Of a DNA stretch of 64,000 nt, positions 6,809 through 62,428 are shown one piece after another (position 1 is the first letter of the stretch; each line of letters begins with the position of its first letter). The stretch is taken from contig OX597815.1 of the NCBI GenBank assembly GCA_951406725.2, positions 128,216,001 to 128,280,000 of the forward strand. Direction: 5' to 3'. The DNA is from Octopus vulgaris (Eukaryota). A model generated the notes under the pieces. The model was not told the origin of the DNA, did not search any database, and saw nothing but the letters and a program-made list of their open reading frames with translations. Both the position numbers and the translations under genes were made by a program.

Positions 6809-7857
6809 TAACTATGTGAATATGCATAATTGTTGTTTGTTTTGTTGTTTCAATTTTTTTTCTTTTAAGATATAGATGAACACTAAGCAATGTGAAGTAA
6901 ACCCAACCATTGCCAAAAAATAAGCATCAATCAATTATAATTAATAACAGTAAATAATAATGTAATTCATAAAGCAGATTAAATTTGTATAAATAAAATA
7001 TATAAACAGAAATATAAATACATACACAATTAAAAAAATCTCAAAATTACACATGATTAGTGCAAGCACTTATAGGCTATGTACTTGCAAACTAATTCTA
7101 TTATGAAAGGCTAATGGTCTAAAAGACGTTTTAGCCATTATGAACTCATTCAGCTTAGTTAATATAAAATATATTTAAATTGAAGTTATACCTGTTGTCA
7201 TTTTCATTGATGCATAAATATCTTATCAAGGATCAGCTATAACATGTGTTACCCAAAATATAGTCCCTCATATTTTCAATTAAAAAATTTGTAAAATTAT
7301 ATGCAATTATTTCTTTAAAGACAGCTTAATACTTAAAGTAATAATGAAAAAACAAAAATTTAATTGCATTAATATTTATTTGGAACCAAAAACTGTTTGT
7401 AAATTTCTTACAGCTTTAACGTGACAGCAATAATTTCAGATTTTTTTTACTTGCCACATGTGAAAAGTATTAAATTTATAAAGTAATTTATGGAAAAAAA
7501 TTCAAGCAAAAAAAAAAAAAGAACCCCACAAAATCCTAAATAGACACTCAAGTATGAAATGTCATGTTTCACATAAAAAAAAAAAAAAACAGGTAAATGT
7601 GGATGAAAATTCAGGTGAGTAAATATCTTAAGATAAATCATATAAGCCCAATTTTTTATCAAAAAAATAGAAACTTTTTAAAAATTCCAAATTTTTTAAA
7701 GATATTAAAGTAGAAAGCTGAAATATCCAGAAATATAAATTTCTCTCTTTTTTTTTTTAATTACATTTTCCAGCAAATATCCAAATTTATTCCATATAGC
7801 TAATAAACAATTAACTCTCAGATGTCAAATAAGCACAAGAAACAAAATTTATCTTAC

Positions 7858-7922
7858 CTGTTGATAAGGGTTATAAGCTTGTGCCTGAGGTGGTTGTTGC
7901 TGTTGTGGTGGTTGTTGTTGTG

Positions 7923-7954
<32 letters not shown>

Positions 7955-8174
7955 GGGTTTGCTGGATAATTAAAATTTTGAATTGGTTGATTGGTTTGAT
8001 TAGTAGAACCAAAAGGACTAAGAGCTGAAGATGGTTGCTGTTGGGGAAATTGCTGTCCTGGCATCGTTGGTCCAGAAAACTGCTGCTGTGGTGGTAGTTG
8101 TTGTTGTTGTTGTTGTTGTTGTTGCTGTGGTTGTGAAGGTTGCAGTTGTTGGGTTGATTGCTGTGCTTGATAAC
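7858..8174 (-). CDS. TFG: TFG coding exon 6 (P/Q-rich low-complexity region with two Q10 tracts)
   Basis: 317 nt, attattag|GT TAT CAA GCA...TAT CAA CAG|GTAAGA; open frame compatible with a phase-1 join; composition typical of the TFG PQ-rich tail. Assigned by frame and composition, not by strong homology. Confidence 0.82.
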
Positions 8175-8266
8175 CTAATAATAGAAGTATGAATCACAAG
8201 GGTAGTATTAGAAATCTTTTGTCAAAACTTGAACTTAAGAAAAACAACAAATGACAAAAAAATTAA

Positions 8267-14617: not shown

Positions 14618-16352
14618 CAGTACAAAGAAATGTAATAATGAATAATCCCTTAACTTATAAAGTACTCACCTTCTTTAGTAAATTTATAATCTGCTCAACA
14701 CTTTCCGTCATTTTTTATGTGCTTTCACTCACATTGGAAACTAAGCAGATATTCAAGTTTTCTTGAATTGACTGACATAATCAGATCAATGAGATGAACA
14801 TGCAGCAATAATTATCAAGTTAAAAATTATGAACTAAAGAATGGCCCAGATAAACAAGAGTTTTCAGTTTAATTCAGCATAGTATATCACCTATCTATGT
14901 CCTGCCTCTCACAAAATGATTCACTATTAGTGCTGGTCAAAGCATATTATAGGAAGTAGTTAGGGCTGTGAATAGAGTGAAAGAGAAAGACAAGGATGAA
15001 AACACTATAGAGCAAAGAGCTTTTGAAGTTCAATGCCCAGAGTTATAGCAGATGAAATATGGCTGCCTAACATGACTAACCAATGTCTTTCAGCCAGAAA
15101 TATACAAGATTCAATAGCTGAATGAAATATTCATGAATAGGTCTTGAAACTATAAAACCAAGATGAGCTAAGAGGGAAGCCACAATGTGATCACTTGAAA
15201 TGTTAGAAATAGTGGCTAAATCACCCTCAAATCACACCCTACTCCCTTAAAAAAATAATTTTACCAATAAACATATTTTTAAACAGTTTAAGCCATTTCT
15301 CTATTATCAAGGAATGTTTGAGAATGAAAGTATTAACTTTAAATCTCCATGTCTTCCTTAATGCTAATACTACTTTTTAAATAAGTTCATTAAGGTAGGA
15401 AAATAATGTGTTATGTGTGTATATAAATTTGAGAGTAATTATCATGAGTACTGATGGAAATATTTTTGAATACCAAATGTTAGTAATACTTTATTATGCA
15501 TATGATAAAGTATGGTGCCTGATGACAACAGAAACTGAACAATTCAAAATTGCAGATATTTACTAAAACATAACACAACAGATGAATTTATGGACCTTAT
15601 GGTTTCTCTGTCAACACCGAGTCTTTCTTAAAAATCACAACACAATGAACATAGCAACATTTAATCAGATATCTTTTTTGTCAATAGGAAACATCTGGCT
15701 TTATAATCATGCCATTTTAAACAATAACCAAAAACAATGGAAGAGATTAGTAAAAAATAAACAAAAGAAAGTTGAGTAATTTATACACTAGAGAAGAGAT
15801 AAAGCAAAATCATGGAAACCATTGCATTTAGTATTTGTACTGAGTTTAGACAGACAAAAAGCCTTATCTTTATACTCTGCTATGTTACACCTTATAAATT
15901 ATATTCAAAGCTACCTTGTATATTTTCTGGTGAATTTATTCTAGAACAAAAATCCTCCCAACTCCAAAACATGAATCTAAAAAATACAGATCCTTAAATT
16001 TTAAAGGTTTTCTACTTTACTTAAAATTCATTCAACCAATCTCTCCAATTTTTGTTAATTTACCAATTTGAATCAAGCTTAAAATGCTTACACATGATTA
16101 TATGTTCCAAGGTACACTTCTCTGTCAATAGTTTAAATATATCCCTATTAAGTAAAAAGTGTCCAAAAAGAAAAAGAAAAATCTGAAAAATACTTAATAT
16201 TTTACTTTACCATCCACTGTAAGGAATTTATGTAAACACTTGTTTAGTAATAATACAAAATAAAATAAAAATCTATTAAGCAGCCGGGGGTTAAAAAGTT
16301 ATTCAAACAGCCACCTGAACTTGCCAGCATTCATAGTAACAGTAACACTCAC

Positions 16353-16718
16353 CTGGTTGATGCACTCCAGTATTAGGTGGGAATGTTTGGGGAGCTGGAT
16401 ATCTCATTGTTGGAGTCATCTGCTGGCCTGGTTGAAGAGGACCAACATTAACTGTTCGCTGTGCTTGTGGGTTTACATGATACTGTGGGTGGCCAGCAAC
16501 ATTGCTAGCAGGTATTTGCTGATTAAGAGAAAGACCTGGTGCTGGGATGGGTGAGGGAGTAGGTTGCTGATGTGAAAGTTGCTGGCGCTGTTGTAAATGA
16601 TATTGGTTGCTTGCCGAAGAACTAATACTTGATACACTGTCTGGGCTTCCGGGACGATCCGGAGCAGTGATGGCAGTTGGCACTGGTGTCTGAGCAGAGC
16701 TTTCATTTGGTGTGGGCC
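16353..16718 (-). CDS. TFG: TFG coding exon 5 (S/P/Q-rich)
   Basis: 366 nt, catatag|GG...CCAG|GTGAGT; encodes (G)PTPNESSAQTPVPTAITAPDRPGSPDSVSSISSSASNQ...GVHQP; DRPGSPDSVSS resembles TFG DRSGTPDSIASS; phase 1-1. Confidence 0.88.
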
Positions 16719-19499
16719 CTATATGATGGACAGGGAAACATAATCGAATCTAATGATATACTTATCAGCAGCAACAGCTGCATGTAGCCTTAGAAAGACT
16801 ATAGCTTATGTTGCAAGTAAACCCCAAAAGTAACTTAAGCATAAAGAAAACTATACAGAACCTTGATTTATTTTCTTTTTAATCTGAAATCTTTTGTAAG
16901 ATCTAATGAATTCTTTTTAGATAATCCATTAGATTAATTGAAATTTTGAATTTTAATAATTAAATTAAAATTAGCACCAAAATAGGTATTGAAAATGTTA
17001 TAAATACCCAAATAGCTACAGATACCAAGAAAAGCTGAGAAGAATGTTAAATAATGCTTAAACTAGAACTTAAAATAATCCTACATATAAAAAAACAAAA
17101 AAAAAAAAAAACGGTTTGAAATGATACTTTATAATGTTCTTTTCAGTAAGCCTCAACTGTATAATAATCTGTCTGATTTAGTCTATAAACATGTAATAAA
17201 TATATACAACTAAGATTGAATATTTAAATTAAATTCAAAATGTCGCCTGTCAAGAAGCAATTTATCAACTGTTATTCTATTCAGTGCAGTTTATTACACT
17301 TATACATAAGCACATATACAACAGACACACACCACGAACACTCAAGAAATGTTTGGCTCACAATAGTCTACAAAACTGACCATTGAAATATATCAAGTAA
17401 AGCTTTCTCTTTTTCTTTTCTTCTCATGATAAAAAATGGAGAGAAAAAGTAACATATTCCTTCTCATCTAGCAAGAGAATGGAAAACAATAAAAGAAAAG
17501 AACAACTTATAAAAATAAATTATAAACCACCCACTTAGGCTAAGCAGGTGTCTTAATAGTTAAGTACTATCTCAGAAAATACATGGATAACTGCCAAACA
17601 GTTGCAGTTTCAAACCTAGTCAGGGAAGGATTTCAAGGAAAAAAATTGCAATAAAAAAATTAAATACCAATAGTACAGCATGATGGTTGGGATAGAACTT
17701 AACTTGAAATATGGAATCTTGAGTCATCATCAAGCATAACTGGCTATTTTTACCACCTGGATATGCTCATCAGAATTGACTCAGGTGAGAGGCTAACAGA
17801 CAGCAACATTGCATTACAAGTTAAAACTGGTTTCTACAATGGTTTTACTACATTCAGTGGTTCACAGCAAGAGTGCAGCAGTGCATCTTGGAACTAACCT
17901 CAGTTGATAAAGTCTATACAAATGTAATTGTAATTTCTTCCTTTACTGGAGGAATAAACCATATGGATTTGCTAAGGATGTAAATTTAGAAAAAAATGCA
18001 TTTTTATATCTATTATAATTTATTGTATGTACACATATACATACTATATACTTACACACAAAGTGAGTACAAAATATTTTTAAGCATCTAAATAATGATT
18101 TAAAATAATTTACTAAAATTATCTTCACTTAAATGCATGGACATCCAAGTGAGAAATTTGTTATGGATAGCATCTATCTTAGTGGTAGCATCTACACACC
18201 TGTTTCTAACTAAGCCAAAAGTGCTACAGTTGCTAGACTAAATAAATATCAATTTTTAACCAACATAATAAATACATAAACAATAGCTTGTTTGTACATC
18301 AGCATTAAGAAATATATTAATTCCAAGTATATTTCTGTTATTTCCTAATCAAAACATCAGCTAATGCGAAAAAAAAAGTATTGATTAGGCAGAAACTAAA
18401 TACTTATAAATATGGTTTATAGCACACTGAACTGATTTCAATGTATTGTTTGCATTTATTTTATCAAATCCAAATGAAAGAAAAGCACAGTTTGGCCCTA
18501 GTGACATTGCAACTCAGATCAATGAGGGAAACACTGAACTTTGGATATCAAAAGGAATCCAAGCTGGTTTTCAACATCCCATGCCATCTCCACAATCCTA
18601 TATGCTATAAAAACAATTTGTCTTGTATACATCCATCCAGACATGCATTTCAGCATGCTCTACTCCTGGAAAGATTGTTGAGGTAGAACCTTCAACTAAT
18701 TCATTCATAGGGTTCTATCAAAAGTAACAGGTCACTTCCCTGCTAGATTCCAAGCATCACCAAGACTATGGAAATTATCCAACCATCTCACTCCTGGTCT
18801 ATTCCTAGCTCTCCTGCCAGCTGGCTTGGCTAGAAGAATCTGTCTTGTATACATCAATTAACAATATTCATCTAATTATGCTCCAGACATTCAGAATTAC
18901 TTCATCCCTTTGCTGCATATGATATGTTAGATGTTCCTGAGTGGATTTCATCATTATAGATCATTATTATTGAAATCAAAAATGGTTTTAGACAAAATTC
19001 AGATTCTGTTTTCATTTTCAAGTATAAGAACTTCGAAGTAGAACAAATACACAGAAATGTAAGCAGCAGGGAAACTGGCATAACTACATTTATATCATTG
19101 TAAACTCTTGCCAAGAAGATAACTCCTTTCATTTAAATAACTGAATTACTAATTTTAATTAGAAAGTATAAATGAATCTATTAGATAAATAAAACAGCTA
19201 GGAACCTAAAGTAAAATTTTGTTTAATTTTAATTCAGGGTATTTCAAGAATATAAATTATGTCTAAGGTTATGATTAATTGTGACCATAATTTGTTTGGA
19301 CTGTTAATCTCATCTTTAGATATATAAAATGTTTAACCCTTTAGCTTTTAAACCAGCCACATCTAACCCAAATATTCTACATGCTTTATGTTTAAACCAG
19401 CCAGATCTAGCCTGTCATCCCTACCCTACAATGTTATTTTAAAAAGATATTTTCACATCATCAAAATCTCAAAGCTACATGATAATGCATAATTCAAAA

Positions 19500-35650: not shown

Positions 35651-35860
35651 ATATCTGAGCAGTTTATGAGCATTTCAACTCCTACCTATGACTGTATATC
35701 ACATCACATTTGAATTATTCATTTTTCTGTCATTCTTCTGGAGATCCCATTGCACCTTTTGTGTATCCATTGTTCACACTGATATCAAGTTGCTGCTAAT
35801 TCCTTTCCCAGATATTGGACAAAGACACTTGCTAGATGGTCTTCTGGATTTTGAAGCCTC

Positions 35861-37836
35861 GGTCAATGAGGAAACTAGGGATAGATGAATGGCTGGTGAG
35901 GACTGTGCAAGCCATGTACAGAGATGCCGTAAGTAAGGTTAGGGTTGGCAACATGTACACAGAAGAATTCAAAGTAGAGGTTGGGGTCCACCAGGGTTCA
36001 GTACTCAGCCCCCTCCTATTTATCATAGTACTCCAGGCAATTACGGAGGAATTCAAGACAGGCTGTCCCTGGGAGCTCCTCTACGCTGACGACCTTGCTC
36101 TTATTGCTGAGTCACTATCAGAACTGGAGGAGAAGTTCCAGGTGTGGAAGGAGGGTTTAGAATCAAGGGGCCTTAGAGTCAACCTAGCTAAAACCAAAGT
36201 ACTAATAAGTAGGAAGGTAGACAATCCACAAATATCTTCAGGAAGATGGCCCTGCTAGATCTGTAGAAAAGGTGTAGGTAGAAACTCTATAAGATGTACC
36301 CAGTGTAAGCTATGGACACATAAGAGGTGCAGCAATGTCAAAGGTAGGCTAACTGGGAAGATAGTTTTTGTATGTGGCAGATGCTCGGGAGCATTAACCT
36401 CCGAAAATCTGCAGAAAACAACTTCCGTCACTTTCCAGGGGGAAAAACTAGAAGTAGTTGATAGCTTCCGTTATCTAGGTGACCAAGTCAGTAGTGGGGG
36501 TGGGTGCGCTGAAAGTGTAACTGCTAGAATAAGAATAGCCTGGGCAAAGTTTAGGGAGCTCTTACCTCTGCTGGTGACAAAAGGCCTCTCGCTCAGAGTA
36601 AAAGGCAGACTGTATGATGCGTGTGTACGAACAGCCATGCTACATGGCAGCGAAACATGGGCCGTGACTGCTGAGGACATGCGTAAGCTCGTGAGGAATG
36701 AAGCCAGTATGCTCCGATGGATGTGTAATGTCAGTGTACATACTCGACAGAGCGTTAGCACCTTGAGAGAAATGTTGTACCTAAGAAGCATCAGTTGTGG
36801 TGTGCAAGAGAGACGATTGCGCTGGTATGGTCATGTGGCGAGAATGGATGAAGATAGGTGTGTGAGAAAGTGCCAATCCCTAGCAGTTGAGGGAACCCGT
36901 GGAAGAGGTAGACCCAGGAAAACCTGGGACGAGGTGGTGAAGCACGACCTTCGAACTTTAGGCCTCACTGAGGAAATGACCAGCGACCGAGACCTTTGGA
37001 AATATTCTGTACGTGAGAAGACCAGGCAGGACAAGTGAGCCCAGCCCACTTATGAATGCCTTTCTTCCCTTGGACACAAAGACCTGTTGAGGCAAGCGAA
37101 GTCGATATAGAACCTCATCCGACGACAGACACCCATGCCAACCCCCCATGCTTGCGAAGACATGTTGGGGCAAGCGAAACCGAATTGAACCAGCCAGGAT
37201 CCCTGGCCTGGTGGTACGTAAAAAGCACTATCCGACTCGTGGCCGTGGCACGTAAAATACTCCAATGCGACCGTACAACAGGCACCCATGCCAACCCCCT
37301 TTGCTTGTGAAGACATGTTGGGGCAAGCGAAATCGAAATCGAATTGAACCAGCCAGGATCCCTGGTCTGGTGGTACGTAAGCACTATCCGACTCGTGGCC
37401 GTGGCACGTAAAATACTCCAATGCGACCGTACGACAGGCACCCATGCCAACCCCTTTGCTTGTGAAGACATGTTGGGGCAAGCGAAATCGAAATCGAATT
37501 GAACCAGCCAGGATCCCTGGTCTGGTGGTACGTAAAAAGCACTATCCGACTCGTGGCCGATGCCAGCACCGCCTCGACTGGCTTCCGTGCCGGTGGCACA
37601 TAAAATACACCAATCTGACCGTGGCCGTTGCCAGCCTCGCCTGGCACCTGTGCAGGTGGCACGTAAAAAGCACCCACTACACTCACGGAGTGGTTGGCGT
37701 TAGGAAGGGCATCCAACTGTAGAAACATTGCCAGATTAGACTGGAGCCTGGTGCAGCCTTCTGGCTTCCCAGAACCCCGGTCGAACCGTCCAACCCATGC
37801 TAGCATGGAGAACGGACGTTAAACGATGATGATGAT
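35861..37836 (+). mobile_element. RTE-clade LINE, 5'-truncated (RT C-half, PHD insert, thumb, 3'UTR, (GAT)n tail)
   Basis: GVHQGSVLSPLLF, LLYADDLAL, FRYLG, HGSETW, RRLRWYGHVARM and RGRGRPRKTW motifs lie in one frame interrupted only by TAG at 36256-36258; stop at 37038; tail GACGTTAAACGATGATGATGAT. Confidence 0.95.
37130..37560 (+). repeat. ~155-bp tandem repeat (about 2.8 units) in the LINE 3'UTR
   Basis: CACCCATGCCAACCCC starts at 37130, 37283 and 37439. Confidence 0.9.
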
Positions 37837-37982
37837 GTGTGCACACATTTTACTGAAGCTGTATAAAACTTCACAGAGTTCCATGTAATTGATCTTCACC
37901 TTTTTTGCACCTACATGCTTGTATGTGTGTATATATACACATATAAACACACACACACACACACACATATATTACACATTGA

Positions 37983-43165: not shown

Positions 43166-45084
43166 GATCAGTCATAGCTAAAATGCCTTTGATCATAAGT
43201 CTGCTCAATAACTACAAGCGTACAGAAGCTCACAGGAAGAGAGTGAAGTATATATAGTCACACTGATGTAAACATGAATAACGAGTACATGTCTGATGTG
43301 AGATATAGTACACCTGGAGTAATAGGTCACAACTACTCATTAGATTGACTACCAATGTGCAATAATGATGTAACATCTGGCTGCTTAACTCATTAGATAG
43401 TACCCAAATCTCCTCAAATCATACCATACCATGTTAAAAAGGGAAGAACCTATATTAAAAATGCAGTCTGAAGATGTACCAGGTCAGGAAAAAAAAATGT
43501 GATTGACACAGCTGGAATGTCTCCAATCATAATTCTGCTGCATCAGAGCTGACAAAAGGCTTAACAACTAGTCACACAGAATGATTCTAATATTGATGCA
43601 TCTTTTGTGATACAGTCAGACCATGACTGACAAGTCCAATCCATGCAAGCATGGACATAAAATTATGATGATGAGAATTTCAATTGAAATTTTTGTATTT
43701 TCAATATTTTCATTTCAATAAATTAAGTATTTTAACACTTCCAAATTGGTAAAACAATCCATACCTTTTGTTTGTTATTGGATTGCAGCCATGCTGGGGC
43801 ACAGCCTAGTAGAGTTTACTTCAACAAATCAACTCCAGTACTTATTTTTATTTTAAATTTGGTACCTATTCTATCAGCCACTTTTACCAAACCATTAACC
43901 TATGGGGACATAAAACAAAACAACACCAGTTGTCAAGCAGTGGTAAGGGACAAACACAAATACATACACACACACATACATACATGACAGATTTCCAGTT
44001 TCCATCAAACCCATTTACAAGGCATTGCTCGACCTGAGGCTGTAGCAGCAGATATTTGTCCAAGGCACTGCACAATGGAACTGAACCTGTTTCTAACCAC
44101 ACAGGAATTTTCAAGATCTGAACCAAAATCAACTTGTCAACTCCATTACATAGTTATGCAACAAGTATTATTTACTATTAAGAGTGCAAGAAATAATTAT
44201 TCGGTTAATTAATGAAAAAAAATTCACAGAATTTCACTCTTTTATAGGCATATTTAACATAATCTATTTCCATTATGAATTGTCATGTGAGAGAACAAAA
44301 CCTCTCATGCTATTTAGGAATTGTTTAATATCATTTGTTAGGAACTGAGATAAGAATGGGAAGTAAATGGAAAACAGAAAGGATACCTAAACAGTAAAAT
44401 AAAAAAAAAATAAGCATCCATAAGAAAAGTTAAACTATCCTATGCATATTTCTGAAATTGCATAACTATCATTTCCTTCTCTTCATGAAGAAAAAGAAGT
44501 TATACTTCTCATTTAGTAGTTTTTAGATAAAAGGCCAGATAATCATAGGACTAATTGTATTTCAATAGACAAAGCTCTCTCACTCAATCCTCAAGTAGTA
44601 TAGCAGCAGCAGTTATGGTTGTTGTCAATTTGTCAAGTCAACTGATTGAGCAAACAAAGCTCTGATCAAAGGCATTCCAGTCGTGACCACCCAGTGTTTT
44701 TAGTGGTATTTAGGACATCATTCTTTGTGTTCAGTGTTTAAGATGATGGTGGTGGTGGGGGGTAATTTAAGGAAGAATCTTTTTTAAATTTTGCTGCTAC
44801 TTTTAGCAGGTTAACAATCCCTGAGGGCAGTAAGTAGCAGGAAAAGTATACCTTTTAAGAAATATATTACAGTAAATGATGTATCATATTAGCATAAGAC
44901 CACAGATTTGTGAGGAGTATAGTCAATTACATCAATCCAAGACATGCTTAATACTGTGATGAATGGTAAAACTGATCCAGTAAAATTATACATACCACAG
45001 GTCCAAGAAACTACTGAATATACACAAGAGGAACAAAGATCTGACTTTATAGAATACTTTAAAAGGTTTAGTAAAACAAACAGG

Positions 45085-46918: not shown

Positions 46919-47731
46919 CTATAGACTTTGCAGACGAAAAACAAAAATTGGAAGAGAAGAAATGGCAAAAACAAGAGAGATAATTAGATGAAAGGATTAA
47001 GTTATTGCGATTTAAGATAAGTTTGTTAGTGGAGAAAATTTTGGAGAATGATGATGATGCCACTCAGCCTAATTTAAATCATGTTGGGGTACCTTTTACT
47101 AATGAAATATTACCTGAAATATAATTTAAGACAATGAGGAATTAGAAATATAAGAGCAGTGTATTTCTTAATTAAATTACATGGCAAGAATAAAAGTGAA
47201 AGGTAACTTATGGTTCTAGGAGTTAATCTAATGAATTTCAGAACCAAAATTGAGTTTATATCACTATATACTGATTTTGAAAATTACCTTTCTAATATGC
47301 TACAATAATGGATCTAAAAATTAAATAAAACCAAAACATATAAATACAAACAAGATAAAACGGCTCTTTTTAACCCTAAGTAATATGTAATGTTTCGTGT
47401 TATTTTAAGAAAATCTTGTGACAACACATATCGGATTTGGTACGTCCCACTAAATTTGTCTGAGTCAGGTTAAATTAGTGGACTTGATTTTTTAAAAATA
47501 AGTTAATTATTTGTTAATAATATCAGTAATTATCTTCAAATTTAAATAATTTATAGCATATAAACAAATTCTAAATAAATATTGGTTCTAATATTATAAG
47601 CATCATCTTACAAGCTCAGGCACTTACAGGAACACACACGCAAATTGAATAACACAGTTACTTTATTTTTTTAAATATATCAAAATAACGTTTGAAATGG
47701 TACTTGTCAATTGTCGTGGTCCCGGTTTTGC

Positions 47732-47838
47732 ACACGCGAATTCGCGCGCGCGCGCGCGTCAGACGTAGGTACTCGATACTCGAGATCCTACGAGGTGACT
47801 TGCGCATGCGCAGTGCAGAATTCGCGCGTGCGCGTTAA
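47732..47838. promoter_or_regulatory. CpG-dense subterminal module with (CG)8 and NRF1-type palindrome TGCGCATGCGCA (left arm; mirrored at about 50441-50547)
   Basis: Sequence ACGCGAATTCGCGCGCGCGCGCGCGTCAGACGTAGG...CCTACGAGGTGACTTGCGCATGCGCAGTGCAGAATTCGCGCG in an otherwise CpG-poor window. Regulatory function is inferred. Confidence 0.4.
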
Positions 47839-48161
47839 CCCCCTCCCCCCAAAAAAAGGTGTTGGATTTCACTAAAAATATATGTGTGTGTGTGTGTGTG
47901 TGTGTATATATAACATTTTCAATTTTACACAAAAAATTACATAGTCGCTTTCCTCGCGGATTTACAGAGAAATGAATTAATTACTATTTTACAGAATAAA
48001 ATTAATGAATTAATTATATAAATTAAATAATTCTTGAAAATTAATTAATATTAATAATATTTTTTGAACAAAGTAAATAATTTATAAAACTTGGTTAATA
48101 ATTTTTTTTACACAAACGCGAACGTATATAATTTGGTAAACTTAATGAATTAATTTCTTCT

Positions 48162-48583
48162 CATCATCATCATCGTTTAACGTCCGTTCTCCATGCCACC
48201 ATGGGTTGGACGGTTCGACCGGGGATCTGGGAAGCCAGAAGGCTGCACCAGACTCCAGTCTTATCTGGCAATGTTTCTACAGCTGGATGCCCTTCCTAAC
48301 GCCAACCACTCCGAGAGTGTAGTGGGTGCTTTTTACATGCCACCCGCACAGGTGCCAGGAGAGGCTGGCAACGGCCACGGTCGGATTGGTGCCAGTCGAG
48401 GCGGCTCTGGCATCGGCCACGATTCGGATAGTGCTTTTTACGTACCACCAGTCCAGGGGTCCTGGCATTTGCCGGGTGCCACACTTGCCCCAACATGTCT
48501 TCGCAAGCAAAGGGGGTTGGCATGGGTGCCTGTCGTGGGATGAGGTTCGATATCAACTTCGCTTGCCTCAACAGGTCTTTGTG
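48162..48583 (-). mobile_element. 5'-truncated RTE LINE 3'UTR inside the left inverted arm
   Basis: Matches the 3'UTR of the LINE at 35861-37836 (CACAAAGACCTGTTGAGGCAAGCGAAG...GGACGTTAAACGATGATGATGA). Confidence 0.9.
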
Positions 48584-49660
48584 TATAAATGTATAAATTT
48601 TTCGCACTAAATTCTTTCCGTAGAATTTATAAAAAAACGCGCAAAATTATTCCGTAGACTTTATCAAATTAAAAAACGCAAAATTAATATATTTTTGAAA
48701 TTGCAAATTATTTAGAATATAAAACAAATTAAGTTAAATTTTAAAAATAAATGTCATATACTTATACTCTGTAAGGTGCTGTGTTCACACTTCAATTTAC
48801 TATTTTCTAGAAATGTTGCTTTTCTAATTGAAACAATTTTTCTCAATCTCCATTTAAAAGTCCATAATGCCTCATGAGCCATATCAAAATGAACAACTTT
48901 GAATTACCCGGTGGTGGTGGTGTGAGGTTCTAATTTTTTTCTGATCTCTCTTTGCCCCCCCTAGATGGAGGTGTGGTGGGGAGACAGATGAAAGATGTTT
49001 CATTCTCTACTATATATGTATATATATATCTATATATCTATATATATATATATATATCTATATATCTATATATATATATATATATATTTCTTAAACCTAC
49101 ACGATATAGTCTATAAATTTGGGATGTTTTTGAAAGATAATATATTTTGTCATCAGAATATATATACTTTCTCACACTACAATTAAGATATATTTATTTT
49201 AAATCGTTCATCTTTTCCCGCGACAACAAAAATTGGGCGCGAAAATTTTTCTAAATATTAGCTGAATGAACAACTGAGATAAAGAGGGGGCAAAGAGAGA
49301 TCAGAAAAAAAATTAGAACCTCACACCACCACCGGGTAATTCAAAGTTGTTCATTTTGATATGGCTCAAGAGGCATTATGGACTTTTAAATGGAGATTGA
49401 GAAAAATTGTTTCAATTAGAAAAGCAACATTTCTAGAAAATAGTAAATTGAAGTGTGAACACAGCACCTTACAGAGTATAAGTATATGACATTTATTTTT
49501 AAAATTTAACTTAATTTGTTTTATATTCTAAATAATTTGCAATTTCAAAAAATATATTAATTTTGCGTTTTTTAATTTGATAAAGTCTACGGAATAATTT
49601 TGCGCGTTTTTTTATAAATTCTACGGAAAGAATTTAGTGCGAAAAATTTATACATTTATA

Positions 49661-50083
49661 CACAAAGACCTGTTGAGGCAAGCGAAGTTGATATCGAACC
49701 TCATCCCACGACAGGCACCCATGCCAACCCCCTTTGCTTGCGAAGACATGTTGGGGCAAGTGTGGCACCCGGCAAATGCCAGGACCCCTGGACTGGTGGT
49801 ACGTAAAAAGCACTATCCGAATCGTGGCCGATGCCAGAGCCGCCTCGACTGGCACCAATCCGACCGTGGCCGTTGCCAGCCTCTCCTGGCACCTGTGCGG
49901 GTGGCATGTAAAAAGCACCCACTACACTCTCGGAGTGGTTGGCGTTAGGAAGGGCATCCAGCTGTAGAAACATTGCCAGATAAGACTGGAGTCTGGTGCA
50001 GCCTTCTGGCTTCCCAGATCCCCGGTCGAACCGTCCAACCCATGCTGGCATGGAGAACGGACGTTAAACGATGATGATGATGA
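49661..50083 (+). mobile_element. 5'-truncated RTE LINE 3'UTR inside the right inverted arm (mirror copy)
   Basis: Reverse complement of 48162-48583 with the same junctions; the ORF track shows identical mirrored spurious ORFs, with one substitution (MPPW vs MPAW). Confidence 0.9.
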
Positions 50084-51749
50084 GAAGAAATTAATTCATT
50101 AAGTTTACCAAATTATTATACGTCTGTAAAAAAAAAAAAGTTTCACAAATTATATACGTTCGCGTTTGTGTAAAAAAAATTATTAACCAAGTTTTATAAA
50201 TTATTTACTTTGTTCAAAAAATATTATTAATATTAATTAATTTTCAAGAATTATTTAATTTATATAATTAATTCATTAATTTTATTCTGTAAAATAGTAA
50301 TTAATTCATTTCTCTGTAAATCCGCGAGGAAAGCGACTATGTAATTTTTTGTGTAAAATTGAAAATGTTATATATACACACACACACACACACACATATA
50401 TTTTTAGTGAAATCCAACACCTTTTTTGGGGGGGGGGGGGTTAACGCGCACGCGCGAATTCTGCACTGCGCATGCGCAAGTCACCTCGTAGGATCTCGAG
50501 TATCGAGTACCTACGTCTGACGCGCGCGCGCGCGCGAATTCGCGTGTGCAAAACCGGGACCACGACAATTGACAAGTACCGTTTGAAATTATGTAATATA
50601 TATGTAGTGGATGAAATAAAAGCAAATATTATATTTAAGTAAATATCGAGCAAACGATTAGAGCAGGTAAGAAGAAATATTAATAAGTCATTCTGTATCG
50701 CATACATAGTAGTCGACTTCAGACAAAGGCGATTTACAGAAAGAATATGAATAATTTTGCTTTTACAAACAGATATATGAAATGCATTTTACTCGGCGAA
50801 GACAATTTTACTGATAAAATAATATTTATTATTATTATTGAGGAAAAAAGGAGAGAAAAAAGCGATATACAAGTACCTAGAAAAGATGTAATAGGAAAGC
50901 TCTCAGTGACAAACAGCAGATGAGTCAATGTCGGGATGTGGCAAGGTCTCTTACAACGTTCACAAATCTTTAGGCCCCCACACTGCCTTCATAAATAGCT
51001 TGTTACTAATAATTAAAGTAACATTTTTCATGCCGTTGTTAACTAAGTTAGCTAGTTAAGCGTGCTATCGGCAATTTAATTTTTTTAGCTTATAAATATC
51101 TACCGAAATTTTTTTTTTAAGTGTGAGTGAACATGTATTTTTTTTAATTGATAAATAAAAATTAGAGCAGCAGTTTTCGTAAATGTCTAACACAGCAAGA
51201 TTTGGCATTTACCATGGCCTTTCCGTTAACCCATACTTGAAAAAAAAATAAATGCTTAATAATCTATTTATATCTTATTAGCGATGTTATATATTTTTTC
51301 CTTTGGGAACTATACATATTTAAGGAATTCGGGATGTTTAACGGGAACATTTATCGCTTTACCAATTCTTGTTCACTGATTCAATTCCATTGATTTGTCA
51401 ACAAAAGAAAATATCTGTGAAGCACTGAAGCTTAAATGATTTAACAAAGAAAGATAAAATACGTATCAGACGAAAAATAACATTTTTTGAAGCCTTATTT
51501 CGGGCAAAATTCTCGACGAATGAATTCCACAATCTGATTTCGTTTCTCAGTTGTCAAAAGTTCACTCAACTAAAGCTTGCTTGCAATTACCATTGAGAAA
51601 AACATAAATGCCATAACTTTCTCCTTTTCCTCTTCTCAAACCTGAGTTATGGTATATAATAAGGAACCATTATTGATGCCATATGCGTTCACTGTATGAA
51701 GTTGAGCTTAGCAATAAAAACAGTACATATTTATTCAGTGAAAGCTACA

Positions 51750-52668: not shown

Positions 52669-53224
52669 ATAAGCAAGTAATCTACCAATTTTAGATACAA
52701 CATTTCTATGGAGATTGTATGCAAAAAAGAAAAAAGTAAAAGATGGTCAAGTGCTGGACACTCCTGGGAAATGTCAGCAGTTCTTTCCCAATCATTGTTG
52801 GATAACTATCCATAACAAGCAGTGGCAGCATTGTGATATTGGTAAGTCTTTTGTGAGGTTGCAATAAGTAAAGCCATTAGAAATTGCAGGTAGAGCCAAG
52901 AGAGAGATGTGGTTTTGGTAGATAGAAATTCTGTGGACGTTTGTGTGAGTATATGTGTGTATATGCATGTTTGTGTGTGTGTGTCTTGCCACTTTATAAC
53001 TGAAGTTGCTTTGTCTACATACTTGTAACTAAGCAGTTTGGCAAAAAGAAACTAATGGAACAAGAACCAGGTTTTAAAATAAGTACTGGAGTCAATTGGA
53101 TCAACTCAACCGTTTAAAGTAGTGCTACAGCATAGCCACAGTCCAATGACTGGGACCAGTTAAAAACCTAAAAGACTAAATGTCAACTCTTTTTACTCAC
53201 TACTAAAAATTTTAATTTTCATAC

Positions 53225-60028: not shown

Positions 60029-62428
60029 GTATTTCGTGTTGCAAGACAGTGTGTGAGAGAGAATCGTGATGTGGTAGGAGAGAAATGTGTTCGCATGGAT
60101 GATGGTTCACTTATGCTAAATGAGGATGCAAAGAGAGAAGTTTGGAGATGCCACTATGAAAGGTTGCTGAATAAAGAAAATGATGGGATAAAGAGAGTCT
60201 GCCGAATGTCGACCCAACAGAGGGACCAGCTATCCGAGTTGACAGTTCTTTGGTAGTTAAGGCAATTAGAAGCATGAAGACAGGGAAAGCCCCAGGCCCA
60301 TCAGGAATTACTGCAGAGATGCTCAAAATATCTGGCAGTGTCGGCTATAGCCTAGTTACCCGTATAGTTAACCAGGTGATACACGAAGGAGTCATACCCA
60401 ATGACTGGTGTAGCAGCATAATAGTCAACTGCTATAAAGGTAATGCCCTAGATACAAATAATTACAGAGGTATCAAGCTGTTGGATCAGGTAATGAAGGT
60501 TACGGAGAGGGTCATAGCCCAACTGATTAGGGAGAGAGTCAACTTGGACGAGATGCAGTTTGGTTTCGTGCCAGGGAAAAGCACCACTGATGCCATATTT
60601 CTGGTGTGACAGCTGCAGGAGAAATACCTAGCCAAAGATAAACCTCTGTACCTGTCTTTTGTTGACGTGGAGAAAGCCTTTGACAGGGTCCCCCGATCCC
60701 TTATCTGGTGGTCAATGAGGAAACTAGGGATAGATGAATGGTTAGTGAGAGCTGTACAAGCCATGTACAGGGATGCTGTTAGTAAGGTGAGGGTTGGCAA
60801 CGAGTACAGTGAAGAATTCCGGTTAGAGATTGGGGTCTACCAAGGTTCAGTCCTTAGCCCCCTCCTTTTTATCATAGTTATCCAGGCAATAACGGAGGAA
60901 TTCAAGACAGGATGCCCCTGGGAGCTCCTCTATGCTGATGGCCTTGCCCTAATTGCTAAGTCACTATCAGAACTGGAGGAGAGGTTTCAGGTGTGGAAGC
61001 AAGGATTAGAATCAAAGGGCCTTAGAATCAACCTAGCTAAAACCAAAAGTTCTAAGTAGGAAGGTAGACAAATCACAAACACCTTCAGGTAGATGGCCCT
61101 GCTCGATCTGTAGAAAAGGCATAGGTAGAAACTCTATAAGATGCACCAAGTGTAAGCTATGGACACATAAGAGGTGCAGCAATGTCAAAGGAAGGCTAAC
61201 TAGGAAGATAGTTTTTGTATGTGGCAGATGCTCAGGAGCAATAAACACTGAAAATACGCAGCAACCATCTTCCGCCACATTCCAGGGAGAAAAACTAGAA
61301 ATAGTTGATAGCTTCCGTTACCTAGGTGACCAAGTCAGTAGTAGGGGCGGGTTTGCTTAAAGTGTAACTGCTAGAGTAAGAATAGCTTGGGCAAAGTTCA
61401 GAGAGCTCTTACCTCTGCTGGTGACAAAGGGCCTCTCGCTCAGAGTAAAAGGCAGATTGTATGACGCATGTGTATGAACAGCTATGCTACATGACAGTGA
61501 AACATGGGCTGTGACTGCTGAGGATATGCGTAAGCTTGCAAGAAATGAAGCCAGTATGTTCCGATGGATGTGCAATGTCAGTGTTCATACTCGACAGAGT
61601 GTAAGTACTTTGAGAGAAAAGTTGGACCTAAGAAGCATCAGTTGTGGTGTGCAAGAGAGACGTTTGCGCTGGTATGGTCATGTGGTGAGAATGGATGAAG
61701 ATAGTTATGTGAAAAAGTGCCACACCCTAGCAGTTGAGGGAACCTGTGGAAGAGGTAGACCCAGGAAAACCTGGGACGAGGTGGTGAAGCACGACCTTCG
61801 AACTTTAGGTCTCACCGAAGAACTGACTAGTGACCGAAACCTTTGAAAGTATGCTGTACATGAGAAGACCCAGCAGGACAAGTGAGGCCATAATCCCGTG
61901 GCCCCTACCTGGGATGTAGCCAGCCCACTTATGCATTCCTTTCCTTCTTGGGACATAAAACTCCACTTGTGAAGACCTGTTGAGGCAAGTGAAAATCAAA
62001 ATCGTAATCGATCAACATCAATGGAATTTGTAGCTGTGATACCAGTGCTGGTGGCACGTAAGAGAACCATCCGAATGTGGCCATAGCCAGCGTCGCCCTG
62101 ACTGGCCTCTGTGCTGGTGGCACGTAAAAAGCACCATCCGATCGTGGCCGTTGCCAGCTTCATCTGGTCTCTGTGCCGGTGGCACGTAAAAAGCACCATC
62201 CGATTGTGGCCGTTAGCCAGCCTCATCTGGCACCTGTGCCGGTGGCACGTAAAAAGCACCCACTACACTCACAGAGTGGTTGGCGTTAGGAAGGGCATCC
62301 AGCTGTAGAAACACTGCCAGATCAGACTGGGCCTGGTGCAGCCTTCTGGCTTCCCAGGCCCCAGTTGAACTGTCCAACCCATGCTAGCATGGAAAGCGGA
62401 TGTTAAACGCCGATGATGATTATGATGA
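60025..62428 (+). mobile_element. RTE-clade LINE, 5'-truncated, with frameshifts and stops
   Basis: GKAPGPSGITAEML, NYRGIKLL, QFGFVPGKSTTDAIF, DVEKAFDRV, YADG(D), PHD insert, RGRPRKTW; 3'UTR ending in GATGATGATTATGATGA; flanked by (TA)n on both sides. Confidence 0.95.

Follow-up and report, generated by a model that had tools for sequence, protein, structure and literature searches.

The 2,882-bp element at positions 47699-50580 of the window (the whole stretch of 64,000 nucleotides of Octopus vulgaris DNA that was analysed) belongs to a foldback family of approximately 100 copies, whose members carry the same foreign DNA in both of their arms. This passenger DNA was probably mirrored only once, in the founder of the family, when one end of the element was rebuilt inward, and the arms of the individual copies still seem to swap short tracts by conversion and, sometimes, by crossover.

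The element is bordered by a perfect 9-bp target-site duplication (47690-47698, plus strand, exactly matching 50581-50589, plus strand). It starts with GG at 47699 and ends with CC at 50580, and the same ends were present in all 26 two-ended copies examined for this feature. The arms, defined by alignment of the left part of the region with the reverse complement of the right part, have 1,264 bp (left arm; 47699-48962, plus strand) and 1,298 bp (right arm; 49283-50580, minus strand), and flank a unique centre of 320 bp (48963-49282) containing a (TA)n tract. Aligned from end to end, they show 5 substitutions and 5 indels relative to each other; a 37-nt deletion in the left arm (50117-50153 of the right arm) is the largest of the indels. 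Each arm is composed, from the outside to the inside, of (i) the 3' end of the Merlin-A family, comprising its terminus and 3' subterminal region (47699-48160, plus strand, in the left arm), (ii) a LINE 3'UTR (48161-48584, minus strand, and 49660-50083, plus strand, the latter with a (GAT)n tail at its end), and (iii) a deleted remnant of a nested Merlin-B element (48604-48922, minus strand, and 49324-49640, plus strand). Passenger DNA makes up about 60% of the arm. The Merlin-B remnant, which includes approximately 60 nt of transposase-coding sequence, consists of blocks 84-96% identical to the Merlin-B copy L223 (a copy with 55-bp TIRs) and arranged in collinear order. In the predicted fold, 1,253 of the 1,264 bases of the left arm are paired to the right arm, and RNA of the element is predicted to form an almost perfect 1.25-kb hairpin. 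Possible host exons are found at 7849-8193 and 16303-16749 (minus strand) and at 44923-45066 and 52688-52837 (plus strand) of the window, two of them being glutamine/proline-rich; a Pfam search with four candidate exon frames of the window gave no match above the cut-off that would point to a host gene.

Judged by its GG ends, its 8-9-bp duplications and the ends that it has in common with an element encoding DDE_Tnp_IS1595, the element is a non-autonomous Merlin derivative. The latter element, L240 of the Merlin-A family, contains a 292-aa ORF with this domain (PF12762, E=1.3e-19) and its three motif blocks. It preserves only one end, to which the outer 390 bp of the window element (47699-48089) are 83% identical, while identity in the centre reaches 96%. 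L239 and L240 have the same terminus as the window element, and the DNA upstream of their transposase is 90-96% identical to part of its centre (49069-49219). Moreover, LINE-free relatives run on into a Merlin-type transposase fragment. Since the centre and the right arm are collinear with L240 and L239, the left arm appears to have replaced the original 5' end, i.e. it would be a derived copy for which the right arm served as the template. An intact autonomous copy in which both ends match was not detected; the Merlin-A transposase presumably mobilises the element in trans. The TIRs of transposase-bearing Merlin-A relatives are short (approximately 36-123 bp), and a clear 9-bp duplication was seen in two of four more distant relatives. 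A Mutator origin, first suggested by the 9-bp duplication, was rejected, because the links are to Merlin. Mutator/Foldback elements of the FB-NOF type resemble the window element in their long TIRs, 9-bp duplication and G at the ends. They differ from it in sequence: the non-LINE part of the arm or the terminus was present in 0 of 30 MULE-transposase loci (taken from 66 PF10551 matches, with 1.5-kb flanks).

The two copies of the LINE piece are 424 nt long, gap-free and 99.76% identical, with one substitution (48199/50045), and their junctions are the same in both arms, although microhomology blurs the boundaries by 1-3 nt. This agrees with the first-pass annotation of the window, whose coordinates fall within this margin and which had described a LINE 3'UTR of about 420 bp at mirror positions with identical junctions and one substitution. 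The piece derives from the 3'UTR of a LINE common in the window; it begins about 36 nt past the stop codon of the copy located at 35836-37837, whose ORF scores as a reverse transcriptase (RVT_1). The passenger thus represents the 3' terminal part of a non-LTR element that encodes an RT, and its tail is a short repeat, (GAT)n. Homologues of the window LINE are proteins of 1,000-1,100 aa with an APE endonuclease, an RT and a PHD-like finger (the best named one is from octopus), which is consistent with, and not diagnostic of, the RTE clade as described in the accessible part of PMC9115989. Comparison of empty and filled sites revealed that the LINE insertion was near-blunt and produced no target-site duplication. 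Two internal stretches of the LINE, of 28 and 27 nt, are kept in the older LINE-bearing copies L146 and L169, whereas the five two-armed copies compared with them have lost both stretches in each arm. The 3'UTR of free LINE copies in the window (37122-37559 and 62041-62260) has tandem units of 155 bp and 62 bp, whose number varies between copies.

The terminal 21-mer of the element has 114 exact matches in the genome and 208 within two mismatches (control: 2), and the motifs flanking the LINE occur 195 (inner) and 207 (outer) times; the size of the family, about 100 copies, was estimated from these numbers. Target-site duplications, with at most one mismatch, were detected in 63 of the 67 copies with two ends (9 bp in 36 copies and 8 bp in 27), the other 4 being without them. 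The window element is a young copy that has moved recently: in sequencing runs X3 and X4 one contig joins 47688 straight to 50580, which represents an allele that lacks the element and has the duplicated sequence only once. A contig of run X1 ends at 47697, as expected with the element present, and contigs of this kind cannot resolve the arms. In many copies (L074, L077, L078, L132, L135, L137, L138, L148, L149) one arm is long and the opposite end is short (40-110 bp), with intact target duplications and differing breakpoints, as from aborted gap repair. The short copies L142-L144, with close pairs of outer flanks, were considered as LINE-free members and rejected, as they are deletion derivatives.

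From 61 candidate loci, 60 with two long arms were aligned (L136, with no second long arm, was left out, and L142-L144 were not aligned). Scored for the LINE in neither, one or both arms, as the first-pass annotation had proposed, all 60 two-armed copies carry LINE sequence in both, whereas four older relatives have an empty site. At least 400 of the 424 nt are present in both arms in 52 copies, and the remaining 8 show a partial deletion of the LINE in one arm. In loci L031-L149 the LINE is next to 145 of the 146 motifs of the outer flank and to 143 of the 143 motifs of the inner flank (overlapping loci may double-count one or two), and the only outer flank not adjoining it is a paralogous module in L146. 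Because the LINE is in both arms of every two-armed copy aligned, the mirroring is likely to have occurred once, in the founder of the family, and the window locus to have inherited the mirrored state. Thus, the earlier proposal that one arm was rebuilt from the other holds, but for the founder and not for this locus.

Using a pattern built from the paralogous module of L146 we obtained 14 matches, among which the true LINE site is empty in four loci (L164, L166, L168 and L172); a first, guessed empty-site pattern had given no matches, as the ancestral inner flank differs. These LINE-free copies are few, old and mostly truncated, and within the 9.5-9.9 kb fetched for each none of the four has a second arm across the empty site. 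Copies with one filled and one empty site were not seen among the loci examined. The Merlin-B terminus is still visible at the inner-arm position in L164, L166 and L168. The probable order of events is that Merlin-B inserted first, the LINE second, and the arm was then extended past both. The empty site in older relatives, together with the divergence values given below, bears out the initial reading of a single insertion later copied from arm to arm.

The process that we favour is break-repair conversion between the nearby inverted arms within the chromosome. A rare long repair tract passing the TIR edge would extend the arm and mirror whatever lies there, common short tracts would level SNPs and small indels, and an occasional crossover would flip the centre. 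The alternative closest to this explanation places the mirroring in the same founder, with the TIR already long: the LINE would have inserted into one arm, and conversion would have carried the 424-bp insertion to the other. We regard it as unlikely. Conversion does move indels of 13-37 nt across the arms, and the oldest LINE-bearing copies (L169 and L171, each with one LINE and a partial second arm) already have arms of 450-600 bp. Furthermore, L166 retains a 20-nt inverted match near the LINE site, a hint of an earlier arm reaching close to it. Against this stand the lack of a second arm across the site in all four empty-site copies and the lack of any filled/empty copy among the loci seen. 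In addition, everything beyond about 50-120 bp of TIR, the Merlin-B remnant included, needed extension at some time anyway. L169 and L171 were rejected as proven one-LINE intermediates; each could equally well have arisen from an element with two LINEs by a single deletion. The first-pass annotation had taken the LINE as a direct record of how very long TIRs grow. The passengers did end up in both arms, and the TIRs of transposase-bearing relatives are short; none of the intermediates seen fixes the route, which was probably extension across the LINE and less probably conversion into a long TIR.

If the arms did not exchange sequence, they would have split no later than the copies, and divergence within copies should equal or exceed that between copies. 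The opposite was found (0.21% within and 0.52% between, 60 copies), as predicted from concerted evolution in the first-pass annotation. The same relation was observed for 49 young copies (0.143 versus 0.198%) and for 9 older copies (0.47 versus 1.01%), with a permutation p <= 5e-5 in each group, as well as for the LINE alone (0.176 versus 0.238% in young and 0.42 versus 0.92% in older copies). The unique centre, used as a control, diverges between copies to the same extent as the arms (0.198% in young and 0.888% in older copies). For the SNP counts, 216 of 1,300 columns (simple repeats) were masked, leaving 1,084 columns. All of the arm comparisons rest on a single assembly.

Among 33 doubleton alleles, 20 sit in both arms of one copy, where 0.3 would be expected (a chance of 1 in 119 for each); by subfamily, the two occurrences fall in the same copy for 7 of 15 young and 12 of 13 older doubletons. 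The aligned sample comprises 60 of about 100 copies, so that some variants counted as private may be common to copies outside it. Private deletions are also present in both arms, of 37 nt in L131 and of 13 nt in L130. The length of the (TG)n tract is equal in both arms of 23 of 47 young copies (4.9 expected) and the T run gave a weak signal (15 of 37; 9.9 expected), with no excess for the C/A run (5 of 44; 6.1 expected) or (GGT)n (12 of 47; 9.5 expected). A GC bias of the converted alleles was not seen in these small counts (Fisher p 0.64 and 0.46). If conversion is unbiased, it would have touched about 23% of new mutations in the young and 37% in the older copies, i.e. roughly a quarter to a third.

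The homogenisation of the arms is patchy. Identical arms were found in 0 of 60 copies, 81 single-arm singletons remain, and one-arm variants have been passed through transposition: the 37-nt deletion occurs in the clade of four copies that includes the window element, and one SNP is found in three right arms. At one site L037 has the variant in both arms and its relative L043 in one, yet at linked sites a few hundred bases off L037 is asymmetric; L053 has older terminal alleles in one arm only. Variants fixed in subfamilies are symmetric. The initial suggestion that conversion keeps the element symmetric was probably right about the process, visible in the excess of private variants in both arms, and overstated its reach. 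In L032 the 37-nt deletion and a linked one-base insertion have swapped sides, while the inner markers stay with the centre, a pattern that likely reflects a crossover inverting the centre plus one conversion. This reading is weakened by the nature of the 37-nt deletion, which lies between direct repeats and recurs in L122.

Homogenisation might instead be tied to transposition itself. During gap repair the new strand would fold back and the first arm would template the second, so that new errors enter both arms at once. The many copies with one long arm, a short other end and intact target duplications are typical of aborted gap repair, and the symmetry of fixed subfamily variants would also fit. 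Such copying can be neither obligatory nor whole-arm, because one-arm variants (the 37-nt deletion in four copies and the right-arm SNP in three) survive several transpositions. The alternation of symmetric and asymmetric sites within a few hundred bases is also against it, as is the higher symmetric share in the older subfamily, which points to time in place, though more cycles of transposition would fit too. We consider this explanation doubtful. A more far-reaching version, which we judge improbable, would have arm copying built into replication through fold-back self-templating in gap repair. Any insertion near an end would then become a perfect inverted repeat, and about 100 self-repairing LINE-3'UTR hairpins would be sources of dsRNA (siRNA or A-to-I substrates) directed against that LINE.

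Long hairpins are hard sequencing templates, and the arms might in principle have been homogenised by the sequencing consensus or by polishing, particularly as one assembly was examined and the contigs of the runs do not resolve the arms. Such an artefact is very improbable. The arms are identical in none of the copies, and the 15 checked copies with both-arm variants keep 4-19 separate differences, in addition to the 81 singletons noted above. Identical variants, some in one arm and some in both, are seen again at loci that are not linked. Homopolymer runs should be levelled first, yet the C/A run shows no excess of equal lengths, and polishing does not account for a LINE that all two-armed copies have on both sides. 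That the LINE inserted twice, independently and sequence-specifically, once in each arm, is favoured by nothing beyond its abundance in the window and is refuted with near certainty, because the same 5' truncation point, tail and two internal deletions (28 and 27 nt) are common to both arms, and the near-identical paralogous outer module is LINE-free in 6 of 6 loci having it that were checked.

Conversion and rare crossover between arms, as proposed here, have precedents. The Galileo 2RT copies of Drosophila mojavensis (Marzo et al. 2013, PMC3573991) are non-autonomous and have TIRs of up to about 1,260 bp, obtained by recruiting internal sequence; the authors propose that repair of TIR2 from TIR1 ran beyond the edge of the TIR, and that conversion is drawn to long TIRs. 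Galileo is a member of the P superfamily and recruits its own internal sequence, whereas in the Merlin family described here the recruited DNA consists of two foreign insertions, with a known empty site. The accessible text on Galileo gives identity figures, with no private-variant test of ongoing within-copy exchange. In ISWpi1 of Wolbachia, at 2 of 22 loci, the two TIRs of the same copy have recombined, so that the interior is inverted and one TIR is converted to the other (Ling and Cordaux 2010, PMC3004938). This resembles the events suggested for L032, but the element is bacterial, with 23-bp TIRs and one informative site, and TIR growth or passengers do not feature in the portion of that paper available. 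Inverted arms of sex-chromosome palindromes are likewise kept alike by intrachromosomal conversion (PMC3403216, PMC8327919). Those palindromes, as the available sections present them, are large and static, unlike the 2.9-kb mobile elements of the window family, whose approximately 100 copies serve as replicates. Members of the Merlin superfamily, as summarised in the accessible part of PMC8101967, have 5'-GG ends, 8-9-bp target duplications and TIRs of 24-462 bp. The window family shares the GG ends, the 8-9-bp duplications and the DDE_Tnp_IS1595 relatives; it departs from that account in being a foldback in which the same end is present twice and another Merlin is nested, and its arms of 1,264 and 1,298 bp are about three times the top of the quoted range, which is a descriptive one.

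Arm-to-arm conversion in palindromes is textbook knowledge. To judge from the accessible parts of those papers, the extension of TIRs has already been published for Galileo and conversion between TIRs for IS elements. The novelty lies in a passenger that serves as a marker, in measurements across the whole family and in arms of this length in a Merlin, which extends the range of this superfamily to arms of foldback size. In the literature searched, from which most subscription papers were absent, this family is not described, nor is a retroelement that was mirrored into both TIRs or a test of private variants across a family. The repeat annotation of O. vulgaris, in the accessible text of PMC13282606, lists 2 recently active Merlin families with 11 insertions, and its repeat library or supplements may contain the window family. 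The growth and matching of very long TIRs have so far been argued mostly from structure, as in Galileo. Here they are recorded in sequence, by two foreign insertions with a known empty site present in both arms, and about 100 dispersed replicates allow the exchange to be counted. The family thus offers a clean example of, and a test system for, known processes, with no new mechanism. It also calls for caution in dating, as TIR-TIR identity makes a copy look younger than its age.

Four copies (L127, L130, L141 and L145) have the same LINE-bearing core and a different terminus, derived from sequence that older members have in their interior. They also contain tandem units of about 115 bp, in unequal numbers in the two arms. 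Both arms of these copies thus seem to have recruited a new end. The copy pairs L060/L082 and L034/L083 lie 8-12 kb apart and have common variants (L083 also has the left flank of L034), which suggests local hopping or segmental duplication. Beyond this family, 150 PF12762 matches were scored in the genome, and several Merlin families have open transposase frames of 300-320 aa (L175-L178, L187, L188, L190, L194, L195 and L197). In the Merlin-A copy at L239:2940-5775, the transposase and the DNA upstream of it are present as an inverted repeat (1.1 kb, 98.5%) on either side of another insertion; this is an independent foldback event in the same Merlin-A family. Related Merlin family members were also found inside or directly beside each other (L130, L172, L240 and L166): a mini-element of the younger type, 120 bp long, lies inside L166, and L130 (G000:C7:699800-706400) sits within a related element. 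This arrangement may reflect a preference for insertion into relatives.
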